Below are positions 1,407-52,546 of a stretch of DNA of 64,000 bases, piece after piece (the first letter of the stretch is position 1; each line of letters begins with the position of its first letter). Origin of the DNA: Octopus vulgaris (taxonomy: Eukaryota). Position numbers and translations under genes: made by a program. The DNA is taken from assembly GCA_951406725.2 (NCBI GenBank), contig OX597815.1:28768001-28832000 (forward strand). The letters are read 5' to 3'. The notes under the pieces were generated by a model that was given only the letters and a program-made list of their open reading frames with translations, ran no database searches and had not been told where the DNA came from.

Positions 1407-1504
1407 CATTATAGTCTTTATATAATTTTAAAATCAATTTATTAAATTCTTTGTTAAGAATTGAAATCTCTTAGATTTACTTCAATGCTATTTCCACCTC
1501 CAAT

Positions 1505-2515
1505 ATATCCATATCCTTGCTAGCTATGCAGATGACACAAAAGTCTCCCACGCAATACAAAACCCTGAAAATATTGCGCATCTGCAACAGGAGTTGGACA
1601 CAATATACAGGTGGGCTGAGGACAACAACATGCAGTTTAATGCAGGTAAGTTCCAGGCCCTGCGCTACTGGTACACAAAGGTAAACGACGTGCAGACTGG
1701 ATACACTGGCCCAGGAAGAATTGCAATACCTGAGTCAAAATCAGTGCGTGACCTTGGCATTGACATGAGCAATGATGCATCTTTCCAAGTGCATGTTGCT
1801 AATCTGGTGATAAAATGCAGACGGCTAGCTGGATGGATTCTCCGAACTTTCAGAACAAGAGAGAAGGAGACACTGATGGTCCTATGGAAAACATTCGTCC
1901 TCAGCCGCTTGGACTACTGCTCCCAACTGTGGTCACCACACAATATAAAACTAACAGCAGAACTCGAAGCAATTCAGAGAAGCTACACAAAGAAAATCGT
2001 CTCAATGCAAAATATCAGCTACTGAGAAAGACTGAAGGTATTAAACTTCTTCTCCCTAGAGCGGAGGCAGGAGAGATATGCGATGATATACATCTGGAAA
2101 ATCCTGGAGGGTCTTGTCCCAAACTTTGGCATTCAAAGTTACCCCAACCGCAGAACGGGGCGCCACTGCATGGTGCCATGGATTCCAACATCACATCAAA
2201 ATACAGGTCCAGATACTGCAACAGCTTGGGTTTCAGAGGACCACAGCTCTTTAACATCCTCCCTAAATGCCTGAGAGACTTACATGGTGTGGATGTGGGT
2301 TTCTTTAAGACTAAACTGGATCTCTTCTTGTCGGGAGTCCCAGATGAACCTACCTCACGACAGGAGATGCGGATGCGGGCAGCAGCATCGAACTCCCTTG
2401 TTGATCAAGTGCCACGTATCAGAGGTGGATTCACAAATTAGTGTAGCTCATTCAGCGGTGGTGCCCCAGCATGGCCGCGGCCTTCGGGCTAAAACATTTT
2501 TAAGGATTTAAGGAT
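1505..2515 (+). mobile_element. CR1-clade LINE, 5'-truncated, pseudogenised RT
   Basis: SYADDTK at ~1522, then W..DNNMQFNAGKF..VRDLGI..ILRTF..SRLDYCSQLWSP. Premature TGA at 2023, a frameshift near 2185 and a stop at 2441. 3' UTR stem-loop and TTTAAGGA x2 tail. Confidence 0.92.
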
Positions 2516-3842: not shown

Positions 3843-5561
3843 ATTTATAAAATTAAAATCTGCCTGAAGCCTACTGATTCAATAAGCAGGAGCTTGTAAC
3901 GGAACGCCAGTTCGTCGCACGTTTAACTAACCAGTTGTCGCTGATACTCGACCAGGAATCGGAACCGTTTTGCTAACAATCAACACTGGTTACTTACTAT
4001 GCTCTCCAGAGTATTTGTTTAGGAAAATATAGACGTGATAATACACTCATAAGCCTTCGGCGAGTAAACCCTACTACAGTCTCGTTTTCCCTGCCATTTA
4101 TTCTGGAGAAGTCTCCTTTTAAATGAAGAGAAATAGAAACAACCAGTGATAGAAATCGGATCATAGTTTGCCGGAGACTTGCCCCCCCCCTCTCAGCAAT
4201 TACTTCCACTGGATTCGTTTTAAAATAAACATTTACGTATTTCCCCTGCTGCTTTGATAATACACTCTAGCAGAAATCCGCATTATTCCTTCAGTATCAC
4301 ATTTTTCTAAATGTGTTAAATTACTTTTCATTAAAAAAATGGAAGCACTATTTAAATTACCCGCAGAACCTGCAATTGAGATGAATCATTAAATCAGTGA
4401 ACGGTGATTGCTTTAGAGTAGAACCATTATTGCAGCTGGTTATTAATTTTAGGTTGTAGTTCTTTATGTTAATCCAGTGAGCGTCAAACAGTTCGAATTA
4501 TGGAGCACTACTATGATTAGGTAAGATCACGGTGAGTCGTTTCTAAAAAATTCCTACTGTAGCCTTTTCATTTTATTCATATATTACTAATGACCTTATG
4601 ACAGACATGTAAGCCGCATGACTTCATTTTATCTCTCAAGTTTTCAGAAGTTAGTCAGAGAAGAAAGGGTGGAGCAGTGGTCTTTGTAGGCACTACCAAA
4701 ACGGATTTATATGTTTTTGTTAAGCCTGGACATATTTAGGTCAGTCTTGTAGAAAAGCATAAGCAAGGCGGGGGTGCCTGGTTGAAATATTTTCAACAGA
4801 AGGAAATCACACAAGAACATCACCCAAAGATAATGGTCAAAGATGGCTCCAAAGGACCAAATGGTGGCATTAAACCTGCAATTTATAAATATGAGGCATT
4901 TTCTTGGAATCAAAAGAAATTTACACGCACTCTTCTTTGCTCAATACACTGTTTTCCGTTACCCTTCATCTTTCTAGATTAATACATTATGTACCAGTAA
5001 TCAACTCAGTTATATTACCATTACAAAAAAGAAGGGGTTTTGTTGTTAAGTTAGAAGAAAATTATAGACTCTTACTTTTAAATCATTCATGAATAATAAC
5101 TATCATTAATATGAAAATGTTCTATTATATTATTATTGCAGCACTATTTATATGTGTTATCTACTGTTTATATATTTTATACGGTAGGTGGTGTAGAGGT
5201 GTGCAAGGGCAGTAGTATAGTAGAGTGAGTTTGTAGGTGTGTTAAGTGTTGGTGTATGTTTGTAATCGTATTATATGTGTACGCGCGAAGAAATCATGGA
5301 AGTAGGGAACTGGCAGCAGGTGTGAATATGAGGTAAAAGAAACGGCAAGAAGAATTTGGAAGGCATGACAGAAATGTGTATAAGGATAAATGAGTTACTA
5401 TTGTATAGAAGGAAGGAACAGGCAAGGAAATGAAAGAGGAAAATAAGTGGGAGCTCAAGGAGAAAAGTGAGAGAAAATCTGGAGAAAGAATACTTACACT
5501 GCAACACTGGTACAAAAATGTTTTTATTTTTGTTCGGCGAGAGAAGAAAAAGAAAAAAAAT

Positions 5562-8034: not shown

Positions 8035-8263
8035 CGGCGAGCTGGCAGAAACGTAAGCACGCCGGGCGAAATGCGTAGCCGTATTTCGCTTGCCGTTACG
8101 TTCTAAGTTTAAATTCCGCCGAGGTCGACTTTGCCTTTCATCCTTTCGGGGTCGATAAATTAAGTACCAGTTACGCACTGGGGTCGATGTAATCGAATTA
8201 ATCCGTTTCTCTGTCCTTGTTTGTCCCCTCTATGTTTAGCCCCCTGTGGGCAATAAAGAAATA
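8035..8263 (+). mobile_element. SINE family 1 (Meta-domain-like), full length
   Basis: GGCGAGCTGGCAGAA head, GACTTTGCCTTTCATCCTTTCGGGGTCGATAAA core and AAAGAAATA tail. 13-bp TSD AATATATTATTGA. Confidence 0.9.
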
Positions 8264-8626
8264 AATATATTATTGATATATATTTTACTCATTTCAAGAG
8301 GAGGTTAACGAGGGAAACCTATACTAGGGCGATCTACCTACCTTTAAAGCAGTTAAATATCTTAAAGCACTCTATAGTGTTCTAGTAAATGAAGGACACA
8401 GAACACATGTGATTATAAGTTCTCGAGATAAAGGTTGAAATAGACAAAACAATAGCTAGCGGATGAAAGACAAATTAATCCAAGTAGGATATAAACTAAC
8501 ATTGTAAAGAAGCACAACGAAATACACCGATATATTTTGACATATTTTGTACAGTTCTACATTTAAGAGATGAGGAATTATGTACATTATTTACATTTGC
8601 GGGTATTTCTCCCCATCTTGTTTGTT

Positions 8627-8672
8627 AACACAACATTTCGGCTGATATACCCTCCAGCCTTCTTCAGGTGTC
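8627..8672 (-). ncRNA. minimal type-I hammerhead ribozyme
   Basis: Reverse complement: GACAC-CTGAAGA-a-GGCTG gagggtatat CAGCC-GAAA-TG-TT-GTGTT. Confidence 0.75.
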
Positions 8673-8733
8673 TTGGAGAAATTTCGAACCTGGGTTCTCA
8701 TTCCTAAGGTATTTTTCGATGTTGTTGCTGTTG

Positions 8734-8798
<65 letters not shown>

Positions 8799-8933
8799 GT
8801 TATTATTATTATTCAGGTCGAGTAAAGCGACAACTGGTTCGTTAAACGTGATCTGAATAATAAAAAATAATAATAATAATAACATTGAAAAATACCTTAG
8901 GAATAAGAACCCAGGTTCGAAATTTCCCCTAAC

Positions 8934-8977
8934 ACACCTGATGAAGGCTGGAGGGTATATCAGCCGAAACGTTGTGT
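8934..8977 (+). ncRNA. minimal type-I hammerhead ribozyme
   Basis: ACAC-CTGATGA-a-GGCTG gagggtatat CAGCC-GAAA-CG-TT-GTGT. Canonical core, palindromic stem III AACGTT. Confidence 0.85.
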
Positions 8978-9229
8978 TAACAACAAACAAGATGAGGACA
9001 AATATCCGTCAAATGTAAATAATGTAAATAATGTATATATTTTGTAATACGATATATATTATGTACACGCACAAACGAAACGCAGTATTTCAGTCCAAAC
9101 GGATTAAAGTGCCTCGGTGTGTTTTGTTCAACAGTTTCTGCCAATCAACCATAATAAATAATAATTTAATAATATATAATCCTGTTTGAAAATGGCCAAA
9201 ATTGAATAGAAACCCGCTTCATAAGCGTT

Positions 9230-9860
9230 CTCATTTTGGCATAAGGTCAACAAATCTAAGGGAATTGGGAAGTCGATTACATCGACCCCAGTGCTCAACT
9301 GCTATTTATTTTGCTGGCCCCGAAAGGATGAACAGCTAAGTCGACTTCGGCAATTCGCATGCTTAATAATGAAGCATATTTAACGACCCTCATAATTATA
9401 AAATGCTTATTCGCTCCTGTGTGGAGTTGAACTCAGAACAAAAGAGAACATAGCAATCTAAATGTTCTCAATCCACAACTGTGAGTGATAATAAATATTT
9501 TATTTAATTGAGGCTCAATCTCAACACTTTTGAAAGGAGAAGGTTAGTGAATTATATTAACCATAGTACTCGACACTGGTACTTATCGTGTCAACCCTTA
9601 AAGGAAGGAAAGCAAAGCTGACCTCAGTGGATTTGAAGTCAAGTGCCGAAACAAATACCGAAAAGCATTTTGTCCGACGCGCTTAGCAATTCCACCAGTT
9701 GACCGAGTTGGTGATAAATATTGGTTTCAACATTTGGTACATGACTAGCAATATCAAGGAGGGGATAAATCGATGACAACGACCCCAGTCCTCAACTGGT
9801 ACTCATTTTATCGACCCCGAAAGGCAAAGTCGATCTCGGCAGCATTTGAACTGAGAACTT
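9230..9860 (-). mobile_element. cluster of three decayed family-1 SINEs
   Basis: Repeated GTCGATTACATCGACCCCAG / GAAAGGCAAAGTCGA / TTTGAACTCAG motifs. Confidence 0.7.
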
Positions 9861-32169: not shown

Positions 32170-33196
32170 TTCGACGATCTGGCAGTATCGTCAGCGCGTC
32201 GGACAAAATGCATAATGGTATTACTTCCAGCTCTTTTCATTCTGAATTGAAATTCAACCATGTTCAACTTTGCCTTTCGGAGCTTGCTAAAATAAGTACC
32301 AGTTGAGCAGTGGAGTCGATGTCATTGACTTATCCTTTCCCCTAAAAATACTTTGTCTTTCATCCTTCCGGGGTCGAAAAATCAAATACCAGTAAAACAC
32401 TGGGGTCGATGACTATTAATGATATTAATAATAATAAGGCGAGCGCTGGACGAAATGCTTAACGATATTTCGCAGCCGCTATATTCTGAGTTCAAATCCT
32501 GCCGAAGTCGACTTTGCTTTTCATCCTTTTGGGATCGATGAAATAAGTACTAGTTACGCACTGGGACTGATGTAATCAACTAGTCCCCCATCCAATTTCA
32601 GGCCTTGTGCCTACAGTAGAAAGGATCATTATTATTATTGTTAATAAGGCGACGAGCTGACAGAATCGTTAGCACGCCGGGCGAAATGCTTAGCGGTATT
32701 TCGCCTGTCGCTACGTTCTGAGTTCAAATTCCGCTGAGGTCGACTTTGCCTTTCATCTTTTCGGGGTCGATAAATTAAGTACAAGTTGAGCACTGGGGTT
32801 GATGTAATCGACTTGTAAACCCCCCCCCACAAAGTTTCAGGCCTTGTGCCTTTTAATAGAAATTATTATTATTATTATTGGTGAGCTGGCAGAATTGTTA
32901 GTGCGCTGGACGAAATGTTTAGCGGCATTTCGCCCGCCGCTACGTTCTGAGTTCATATTCCGCCGAGATCGACTTTGCCTTTCATCCAAAATTTCGGCGA
33001 CGAGCTGGCAGAATCGTTAGCACACCGGGCTAAATGCTTAATGATATTTTGTCCGTTTTTACGTTCTGAGTTCAAATTCCGCCAAGATCATCCTTTCGGG
33101 GTTGATAAATTAAGTACTAGTGAAACGCTGGGGTCGATGTAATCAACTAATCCCCTCCCCACAAAATTTCATGGTCTTGTGCTTATAGTAGAAAAG

Positions 33197-36523: not shown

Positions 36524-38580
36524 CTAGCTGAATGGCCCGGCGTTGCCCGGGTTACTGCTGTTCTTATTCAGATTAGTAAACAATAAATATAAAGATATAT
36601 TCTCATAATTATTTGGAAATATCTATATTTTATAAAAAACAAATCCAAATTGTAATGATAAAAAAAATTCGAACTGAAAATTTGTCAATGTTGAAACACC
36701 TCAAGGTAAACAATATTCATTGAGTAATTTTTTTGTTGGTGTCGAATAAATTGTTGTTGCTTCCAACTCGCGAGCATCAACATAGAGTTGGCCGTGGGAG
36801 AAGCATGTAGTAGAGAGATCAAGTGCAACTATCCTGAGATTTGTTAATTGAAATACCAAAACTTAGTTTGAATGGAAGCTGAAGCGTCTTAAATTCAACT
36901 GGAATATCTGTAGGTATGAGAGGAATTTTTAGAATAAAGACATTTTCTCCTTTGTGACTACCTGTTATAATTGTTACTTGTAGGACATGGGGCTTCACGG
37001 AAGTAATAATTAAGCGACATGCGTTACACAGGTGAGCACCCATAATAGGAGCACCCAGTTTTAGTGTCATGTTATGCAGTGGCATCCCAGTGGGTTTAAG
37101 TGTGTTGAGAAATTCAACAGAGTATTGACAACCTGATGTCGATCGACTGTTGTCAATTGATCGAAAAGACATTCCTGATGTATCTGTTAACGTTTGAAGA
37201 AATTCATGATTGAGTTTATCTACCATTTCATTAGTTGAAGCTAGTATAGCTCTTTCACATAGCATGTTTACATCAGTATAATTGACAGATAAATTAGGAA
37301 ATACTTTATCCATAAGATACTTAAAAGAAAGTATCATTTGGCCACATGCAATTTCATGTAGCTGAAGTCTTGAGTTGAGTGCAAATATCCCATTACCAAT
37401 CTTAAGAAGCTCATATGATCACCTTGAAGAAGTACTCTCATATCGCTTGTAAGATGATGTTTTTTCACGTCTCCAAAGGTACGATTTTTTGAAGCATGCA
37501 TTGATCTCATTAACTTTTGACGAAAATGTCCTGCACGAAGAACCGTTACTCCTCCCGTGAGCGTGCTATTGTTTTTTATGTCTTAAAGGGTGCGGTCAAA
37601 TACCTCTGGAGCTCCACGATGTAACATAGTGCACTCATGCCAAACAATGAAACAAGTTTGTTGAAGAACTGTTGCCATTGTAGAGATTTTGGAAATGTGC
37701 ACATCTGAGATTCTTTCATTGCAATGTTTAGAGGGAGCTTGAACATGGAATGAGCAATTCTTTTCTCCATTGAGGAGGGTAGCTGCAATATCAGAAGATG
37801 CAACACTGGAAGAAGGTTAGATTTTATTTCCTCCCATTTAGGATTGCAGGTGAAAGTAGCAAAAAGATCTGGTTTTCCATATGTCCTGACACATGTCCTA
37901 GCATCTTGTGTTTGTTCATGCAGATATCAAGGACCACCTGTGAATGATGATGGAAGGATTATATGTTGCCCCATGTTTTGAATATCACCATCATCATCCT
38001 CAGAGCATCTTGGAGATGAACATAATTTTTAGCCCTTAACTTTTTTTTGATTGTTACAAATGTAGAGGAGGTGCTGACTCTCAACTTTAGCATACATATC
38101 AACCAGGTATTGCCGAAACAGATCACGATACATGTGTAATTGATTTGATTGTTCTGGTCTTAACATCAGTTGGTAAGAATAGAAGTCATTCAACGACATC
38201 TCTTTGTTTGTAATTGGCTTTGTTGTTGCAGGTTCAATCTGTGAAATATTGAATTGATATCCACCTTGTCTATTCCACAAGATAAGAGGATTCTGGAGAG
38301 CATCATAAAAGAGATGAGTCTCTGAAACACGTTTAAGGTTGTTATCTCGAGCGGAGACCCCCTTCCGTCACGAATGACCATGGGTTTGCACCTAGAAAGT
38401 TACCCTCCCAGTCGCCCATGCATACCAGCCTCCTCTCTCCACGCCACCGATGTTATCCAAGGGAAAGAATTATCTCGAGCAAGAATAAGAATATCACGAT
38501 TTTCATGGGGATCACCTACCATTAGGATGGCTACTTCATTAGATGTGGGTTCATTAAAACGGTGTAAAATGTCCTTTACT
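36524..38580 (-). mobile_element. Helitron, internally deleted, pseudogenised Rep/PIF1-helicase
   Basis: 3' end hairpin CCCGGGCAACGCCGGG plus CTAG|T. Helicase peptides ERAILASTNEMVD..EFLNTLKPTGMP..LKLGAPIM..QLPFKLSFGISINKSQ. Rep peptides FNEPTSNEVA..RDI, QYLVDMYAKVE and TFTCNPKW. Confidence 0.95.
38353..38469 (-). mobile_element. 117-bp retroposed fragment inserted in Helitron Rep
   Basis: 11-bp TSD TTATCTCGAGC (38342-38352, 38470-38480). Removing it restores RDILILARDNNLKRVSETHLFYDALQNPL. Confidence 0.85.
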
Positions 38581-41500: not shown

Positions 41501-42019
41501 CGGAGTTAAACGCAGAAGTTATTCAAATCTTTATACTTCCGACTTATGCTTCGAGGAAAACATTGATATTATTCCGGAGGGAATAAAATGTCAAGCAAAG
41601 CAATCATCACGTCAGGAGAAAAAAGAGAAACAAAACACATCAATAAGCCATTTTAGCTGAATGTGATTACCGCGTAAATGATGAAGGGGAACGCTGGCAA
41701 GTTACTTTTTAAAAACCATTAATAGATTTAACGTCAAAGGCAATTTAAAGGAAGTGAAGAAAGAAATTAACAAAAAATTAAGAGTGGAGAAATATAGTGG
41801 GATAGATGAATAGGAATAAAGCTTAAAAGCGTGGAAATAGATATATGTAGTGGAAATGAAATGCAAGGAGACAGTTAAAGGTCAATTTTAAACATCAATG
41901 GAGTTTTATATCGTTATGATTGTCTACTCTACCTTCAAAATGTTTCTAATCAAAAATTACAAGGGGTTAAAAATAGGTTGGTTAAATTTTTCTGAAACAT
42001 TGTTTTCGATGATGATATA

Positions 42020-42535
42020 ACTAAAGCCAACTTTTTGGATATTACCCTTAACTTATATAATGGTTCATATTTCTCATACCATAAACCCTCAACTAATTTA
42101 AAATATATTAGCTCTTTCAGTAATCACTCTAAGGCTATTACAAGGAATTTAGTTAGGAATATTTCACTTAGACTTTCTAGATTATCTGCTAATGTTGATA
42201 TCATCAACGATAAAGCTGAATTTTATAACTCTGCCTTACTTAAAGCAGGCTATAAAGAAAAAATGCCTATTGACATTAATTCTACCTCTATTAATCAGGA
42301 CATGAAAACACGTCATAACGGTAATAACAATATAAATTTTATTTCGAATAACAAGACTAAATCGAAAAATGTAATTTTGCAGCGTAAGTGAGATAACCGT
42401 TCTTTAATTCCCTTTTTACGTTGTAAAAGTAAATCTAGGACCTTTAACGATAATTACCCTAATGACAAGGTATGTCCTAGTAAAAGTGTTTGGTTGATAA
42501 CTCCATATGGTGAGCAGATCAAATCCAACTTCCTT
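42020..42535 (+). pseudogene. Penelope-like element RT C-terminal remnant
   Basis: NFLDITLNLYNGSYFSYHKP..KYISSFSNHS..I..NISLRLSRLS..YNSALLKAGY, later VWLITPYGEQIKSN. Matches the PLE pattern FLD..Y.KP..Y+..SNHP..RLS..Y..AL..GY..WFNPPY. Confidence 0.85.
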
Positions 42536-51945: not shown

Positions 51946-52546
51946 TATTTCTTTATTGCCCACAGGGGGCTAAACATAGAGGGGACAAACAAGGACAAAG
52001 GAATTAAGTCGATTATATCGACCCCCAGTACGTAACTGGTACTTATTTAATCGACTCCGGAAGGATGAAAGTCAAAGTCGACCTCGGCGGAATTCGAACT
52101 CAGAACGTAACGGTAGACAAAATACCTATTTCTTTACTACCCACAATGGGCTGAAAACAGAGAGGACAAACAAGGACAGACACACGGATTAAATCGATTA
52201 CATCGACCCCAGTACGTAACTGGTACTTGTTTAATCGACCCCGGAAGGATGAAAGGCAAAGTCGACCTCGGCGGAATTCGAACTCAGAACGTAACGGTAG
52301 ACAAAATACCTATTTCTTTACTAACCACAAGGGGCTGAAAACAGAGAGGACAAACAAGGACAGACACACGGATTAAATCGATTACATCGACCCCAGTGTG
52401 TAACTGGTACTTATTTAATCGACTCCGAAAAGATGAAAGGCAAAGTCGACCTCGGCGGAATTTGAACTCAGAACGTAGCGGCAGACGAAATACCTCTAAG
52501 CATTTCGCCCGGCATGCTTAACGGTTCTACCAGCTCGCTGCCTTTG
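51946..52546 (-). mobile_element. SINE family 1 trimer
   Basis: One full unit plus two ~184-bp units, with a single 14-bp TSD AAAATAGCAATATT (51932, 52547). Confidence 0.9.

Follow-up and report, generated by a model that had tools for sequence, protein, structure and literature searches.

What kind of mobile element leaves behind a 485-nt head-to-head palindrome is the question raised by this locus. Within the stretch of octopus DNA analysed here (64 kb in full, hereafter the window), the palindrome spans positions 8552 to 9036 and lies inside an exact 10-bp TSD, ATATTTTGTA, found at 8542-8551 and 9037-9046. The feature is real and was correctly recognised as Penelope-like in a preliminary description of the window; its architecture is one that has already been described. 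With a probability of roughly 0.7, it represents a single, severely 5′-truncated insertion of an octopus Penelope-like element (PLE), which is now an inert fossil. The octopus family of which it is likely a truncated copy is apparently undescribed, and its formal assignment awaits a linked RT-EN ORF. The features that bear on this reading are as follows.

8542-8551, no strand: left TSD, 10 bp, AT-rich, an exact repeat of 9037-9046
8552-8582, minus strand: tail of 31 nt, on the left arm only; in each of the four sequencing runs compared, this tail is also among the main loose ends following the right arm
8583-8722, minus strand: left arm, a pLTR-like end with its sense strand outward; 131/140 identical to the right arm
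8627-8672, minus strand: left minimal type-I hammerhead motif, with CUGAAGA at 8667-8661, GAAA from 8639 and GUU at 8634-8632
8723-8813, minus strand: left-arm (AAT/AAC)n tract of 91 nt
8814-8855, no strand: centre, a unique loop bounded by short inverted TTCAG(G/A)TC ends, in which 8816-8850 matches 3953-3918 (33/36)
8856-8881, plus strand: right-arm (AAT)n tract of 26 nt
8882-9036, plus strand: right arm, a pLTR-like end without the tail, terminating at the TGTA boundary of the family
8933-8978, plus strand: right minimal type-I hammerhead motif, assigned from the motif, which matches the consensus in the accessible part of the PMC4209133 supplement
9037-9046, no strand: right TSD, an exact repeat of the left TSD
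3918-3953, minus strand: possible source of the loop sequence at the centre, lying 4.9 kb upstream of it, with no other copy in the window

A repeat as long as the TSD arises by chance at such ends in 11 of 5,000 random window pairs and in 5 of 5,000 flank shuffles. The target at 8538-8551 resembles the TGTA/tail boundary at the 3′ end of the arm family. The TSD may be 11 bp long with one change, or a short microhomology may have guided priming.

The two arms, 8583-8722 on the minus strand and 8882-9026 on the plus strand, both face outward and share 131 of 140 identities with 5 gap positions, microsatellites excluded. They are unlike in microsatellite length and in one 9-nt and one 3-nt unit. 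An nhmmer search finds only these two copies of the arm, 42 nt apart, in the 64-kb window, and the arm does not occur there in tandem arrays. At their 5′ ends the two arms stop almost at the same point, GA(C/T)CTGAAT, differing by a few bases at most. The left arm alone carries an extension of 31 nt (8552-8582), which shrinks to about 25 nt under another reading of the final 10 nt of the right arm. There is no coding sequence inside the palindrome: it includes short frames but no ORF of 120 aa or more, and an ATG frame runs across the hammerhead in the left arm. The preliminary description, which had reported a whole-element palindrome with a 10-bp TSD, an extension of ~30 bp at one end and no coding sequence, is confirmed on all these points. 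It had also depicted the centre as an inverted (TTA)n/(TAA)n pair; both tracts are present but do not form a bare pair, as they are unequal in length (91 nt at 8723-8813 versus 26 nt at 8856-8881) and are separated by 42 nt. A further inverted pair, 8118-8199 and 9270-9351, was rejected as part of the element: it lies outside and belongs to a dispersed repeat with 27 matches in the window, including itself. This dispersed repeat is SINE-like and also occurs in tandem arrays at 32443-32987 and 51946-52495.

Scanning both strands of the 64 kb for the CUGANGA..GAAA pattern returns three hits with a stem II of at least 3 bp, of which only two, +8938 and -8667, have a 6-bp stem II. These two are the outward-reading motifs of the arms, and the order of elements in each is CUGANGA-A-stem II-GAAA-(C/U)GUU-stem I. 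The right hammerhead consists of CUGAUGA (8938-8944), an unpaired A (8945), stem II (8946-8950 with 8961-8965), GAAA (8966-8969), a palindromic ACGU and GUU (8971-8973), with the cut predicted after 8973. In the left hammerhead, a U replaces C15.2, which breaks the perfect palindrome of helix III. Folding reproduces stems I and II, but the fold z-scores are weak (-0.9 to -1.9), and Rfam has no matches in the window at the gathering threshold. Therefore, the ribozyme call rests on the fit to the published consensus of minimal hammerheads, as given in the accessible part of PMC4209133. This fit extends to each listed feature, namely, H after CUGANGA, G10.1-C11.1, palindromic 15.2-16.2, and NUH; two Lottia rows in the same compilation also read C G U U. 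On this basis, the earlier assignment of an outward-reading minimal type-I hammerhead to each arm stands.

The preliminary description had further envisaged that a transcript would carry the ribozyme together with its antisense copy. Both are indeed carried, but the core is predicted to be sequestered. The read-through RNA is predicted to form a single long hairpin (-248 kcal/mol), relative to which forcing stems I and II would cost about 61 kcal/mol, and the core bases show a predicted mean pairing of 90%. With the ribozyme of the 8552-9036 copy buried in this way in the model, its cleavage appears unlikely. A dimer ribozyme acting in cis was rejected given the same penalty and core pairing, and also because the second hammerhead is antisense and therefore not a dimer partner in cis. 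The RNA run contains no pile-up of read ends at the predicted cut, which is a weak test. The CpGs of the core have decayed to the same degree as those elsewhere, with G12->A accounting for 7 to 14% of depth versus 9 to 28% at 9007/9008, as expected for dead copies.

The abundance of the arm family is seen in sequencing runs. The run index comprises 24 runs from at least 6 coded organisms; 20 of the runs contain part of the stretch, and four were compared with 8814-9260. Two small-share ‘insect metagenome’ runs in the index do not count as evidence. The spacer and the AAT tract were skipped as repeat in this comparison, which covers the arm only and not the centres or TSDs of other copies. Contigs matching the arm number 27,894, 28,026 and 12,851 in three of these runs; in the RNA run, 6,773 of 12.9 million reads match the arm and none match the unique flank. 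Summed arm depth is 1.3-2.6e5 times that of the single-copy flank, which is not a copy number, and the arm is clearly a major, very high-copy repeat. The hammerhead core is the family majority among the rows shown (26 more are not shown). Loose ends behind 9026-9039 reproduce the left-arm tail in all four runs, while in the RNA run some reads depart from the arm at 9025/9026 and continue in unrelated sequence; therefore, both tailed and tail-less ends exist in the family. Depth in run X1 climbs ~15-fold from the 5′ to the 3′ part of the arm, a trend confounded by the skipped repeat and by private mismatches of this copy near 8930, and at least one contig (record 17 of run X7) reaches 133 nt upstream of the arm. 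The 15 rows shown include three strand-switch joints elsewhere in the arm, given without orientation (46 more joints are not shown). Exact-pattern scans of metagenome, viral and prokaryote collections yield 0 loci each.

Two contigs cover the right junction. The one from organism A (X1 record 8, 9006-9260) runs from the arm through the TSD into the flank and differs at 16 of 255 nt (~6%), and the one from organism B shows zero differences over 9013-9260. Thus, the insertion is likely common to two diverged lineages and predates their split. The ~6% divergence at the organism A junction is close to the 6% between the two arms, and the insertion is therefore probably not recent.

Searches for a partner protein find no RT/GIY-YIG ORF linked to the arm end, either in the window or in protein searches with arm-coded frames. 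When the arm is taken as the start of an ORF, one of three candidates is a hit, to a dystrobrevin model and not to a PLE protein; when it is taken as the end of an ORF (poly-N frame), none of 552 candidates scores. Both are weak negatives. The hit, the Octopus bimaculoides dystrobrevin-beta model XP_052825882.1 (P0001), starts with a peptide encoded across the hammerhead, 22 of 23 residues being identical to the right arm. The start of this model is an exonised repeat or an annotation artefact, and the arm-as-ORF-start reading was dropped, as only this exonised copy was found. A tblastn comparison of 151 proteins with the element and with 3850-4400 shows arm matches to P0001 only; P0139 produces one weak hit in the donor region (E 0.002), within chance for 151 queries.

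Several other fragments of mobile elements are found in the window. A decayed PLE-type RT/thumb fragment lies at 41891-42532 (plus strand). Its closest matches are Octopus proteins, led by a mis-named one of O. sinensis (59%, E 2.5e-33), and its longer homologues, judged by eye, contain an RT, a Cys-rich linker and a GIY-YIG-like end. Together with the arm-coded peptide in the O. bimaculoides model, these matches point to an octopus as the host. Pfam does not name this fragment as RT (two DUF hits fall below the cutoff), nor does it do so for the 9 of 150 homologues scanned. No link between this fragment and the arm is found, and there is no arm copy near 41.9-42.5 kb. LINE-type RT fragments with a duplicated C-terminal piece lie at 1465-2441 (plus strand) and 267-711 (Pfam RVT_1, below cutoff). 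A Pif1-helicase 2B domain fragment at 36819-37418 (minus strand; E 1.1e-6) is likely a Helitron remnant.

Residues 8816-8850 of the central loop match 3953-3918 at 33 of 36 positions (E 6e-9), and the loop has no further match in the window. None of 500 shuffled spacers reaches this score, the best giving 27.4 versus 49.1 bits. Neither flank of the 3918-3953 site is related to the arms. The 35-nt loop may thus be a patch templated locally, by the DNA at a distance of 4.9 kb; its donor could also be a repeat of which the window happens to contain few copies.

RNA of the arm family shows an excess of particular mismatches. In the RNA run (X24), 25 of the 44 variable places in 8893-9039 are A>G or T>C, compared, in unmatched DNA, with 5 of 22 in run X10 (p=0.01), 4 of 18 in X7 (p=0.02) and 11 of 31 in X1 (p=0.10; this count includes flank differences). 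Sites 8962, 8987, 9002, 9003 and 8939 are enriched 7- to 131-fold over X1 in RNA. An A>T change at 8957 is also enriched 70-fold, and a few highly expressed divergent loci are therefore a real rival to ADAR editing.

The features expected of a PLE terminal copy that are found here are the minimal type-I hammerhead, the inverted head-to-head arrangement and the optional 30- to 40-nt tail (31 nt in this case). In the favoured reading, a PLE RT/GIY-YIG protein would have cut AT-rich DNA with a 10-nt stagger, and both target strands would have primed reverse transcription, starting at two sites in the pLTR RNA that lie ~31 nt from each other. By analogy with the in vitro behaviour of the anole PLE, two such start sites would yield one tailed and one tail-less arm. 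Both cDNAs would then have halted just 5′ of the (AAT)n tract and would have been joined head to head, probably via the 35-nt patch copied from DNA 4.9 kb away. Fold-back or self-priming is an alternative route to the junction and would also give a symmetric centre (PMC3846280, accessible portion). The absence of an ORF is most simply explained by 5′ truncation, the usual cause of absent coding sequence. Against truncation, the common stop point of the arms is poorly predicted if truncation is random, and a fixed RNA 5′ end or fold-back suits it better.

This stop point brings in the strongest of the alternatives, which we still consider unlikely. The source would be a SINE-like PLE derivative, whose RNA of ~200 nt would begin shortly before the (AAT)n tract and depend on mobilisation in trans, so that run-off at its fixed 5′ end builds each palindrome. 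The enzyme and the priming route would be the same as for a truncated PLE, and the template alone would differ. Such a derivative would be consistent with both arms ending within a few nucleotides of one 5′ point and with a very high abundance in the absence of a partner ORF. It has parallels in the non-autonomous pLTR-forming elements of Chlamydomonas (PMC8557442) and in pLTRs acting in trans in rotifers (PMC3846280), both as far as these sources were accessible. However, depth drops toward the 5′ part of the arm, as it would with variable truncation, X7 record 17 extends upstream of the arm, and symmetric ends are also possible by fold-back or self-priming (accessible part of PMC3846280).

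A bolder and rather doubtful proposal is that the family is a short non-autonomous PLE derivative of octopus with ~1e5 copies, whose double-primed cDNAs are stitched together with DNA copied from a few kilobases away and whose 200-bp hairpins form a large natural class of A-to-I editing substrates in cephalopod RNA. If so, each palindrome would record its own repair event.

It is very improbable that the entire 485-nt palindrome, loop included, moves as a fixed unit, whether this unit were a hairpin RNA or a DNA transposon of MITE-like type with the arms as TIRs. Long inverted arms and a 10-bp TSD would suit it, and a TSD of this length is seen in Mutator-type elements; the 3918-3953 match could, in this case, be the remnant of another family copy. 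However, the flanks of that match bear no relation to the arms, other copies switch strand at other places, and the arms contain a PLE-type hammerhead. A MITE or TIR transposon was rejected because the inverted repeats are not symmetric to both termini, the left one having a 25- to 31-nt overhang. Anatomy, family reads and literature alike support the Penelope-like assignment over the MITE label against which the preliminary description had warned. Least probable of all are two independent insertions side by side in opposite orientation, with the loop as original target DNA: the family is abundant enough and the arms differ in microsatellite length and in one 9-nt and one 3-nt unit, but a single TSD encloses both arms, and the window has no arm copies besides these two, 42 nt apart.

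The locus matters mainly for annotation: octopus genomes probably contain many stumps of this type, which would pass for MITEs or unknown repeats. An open step of the PLE cycle is the formation of the inverted 5′ junction, by self-priming or by joining of two cDNAs. The locus offers two leads, namely, the capture of local DNA where the arms invert and the surplus of A>G/T>C changes in RNA of the family. If the loop proves to be locally templated across many copies, the family would be a very large natural sample for the junction step; should the RNA mismatches reflect genuine editing, PLE palindromes would be connected with A-to-I editing in cephalopods.

PLEs make up 6.83% of the O. vulgaris genome, in 190 families, and the main text of that report, in its accessible part, mentions neither ribozymes nor palindromes (PMC13282606). 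The literature searched, which included few subscription papers and had some repeat libraries and supplements outside its reach, contains no description of the arm family; the 20-nt stem II motif has 0 hits in it, the accessible part of the PMC8557442 supplement included, and “Octopus” has 0 hits in the PMC4209133 supplement files searched. The Naiad clade of PLEs, which lacks the canonical hammerhead motif, was rejected as the source, given the full motif in the arms.

Metazoan non-LTR retrozymes are likewise short and non-coding, with type-I hammerheads, and are thought to be mobilised by PLEs (accessible parts of PMC7229834 and bioRxiv 10.64898/2026.07.22.740005). However, retrozymes are direct tandem repeats with canonical hammerheads in PMC7229834, whereas the octopus copy is an inverted pair with minimal ones; a retrozyme identity was rejected because the arms are not direct tandem units, each with a hammerhead. 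Poseidon from Anolis (PAc; PMC11167929, accessible portion) resembles the octopus insertion in its AT-rich target, extension of both strands and two RT start sites that give a tail. In neither PAc nor the octopus arm are RNA-seq ends seen at the hammerhead site. The ORF start of PAc overlaps the hammerhead, and in the octopus left arm the ATG frame crosses it, but no long protein begins with that frame.

In view of the closest parallels, the novelty that the preliminary description had implied is not supported. Metazoan PLE minimal hammerheads (Cervera and de la Pena 2014, PMC4209133) share with the octopus motifs all listed consensus features and the occurrence as an opposite-strand pair: the accessible text describes dual minimal hammerheads ~100 to 700 bp apart on opposite strands, as well as scattered motifs tied to truncated PLEs. 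ORF-less pLTR insertions have also been described. The Pen2, Pen2a and Pen3a insertions of Adineta vaga (PMC3846280; scheme in PMC8557442, both in part) include inverted head-to-head pLTRs with TSDs of 8, 9 and 10 bp, a 31-bp tail on one arm, palindromic junctions and unrelated non-coding DNA captured between solo pLTRs; the same inverted-pLTR insertion scheme appears in the accessible parts of PMC8557442 and PMC8969392. Compared with the A. vaga insertions, the octopus copy stands apart in being without any ORF and in its captured piece, which is 35 nt long and has a candidate donor 4.9 kb off.
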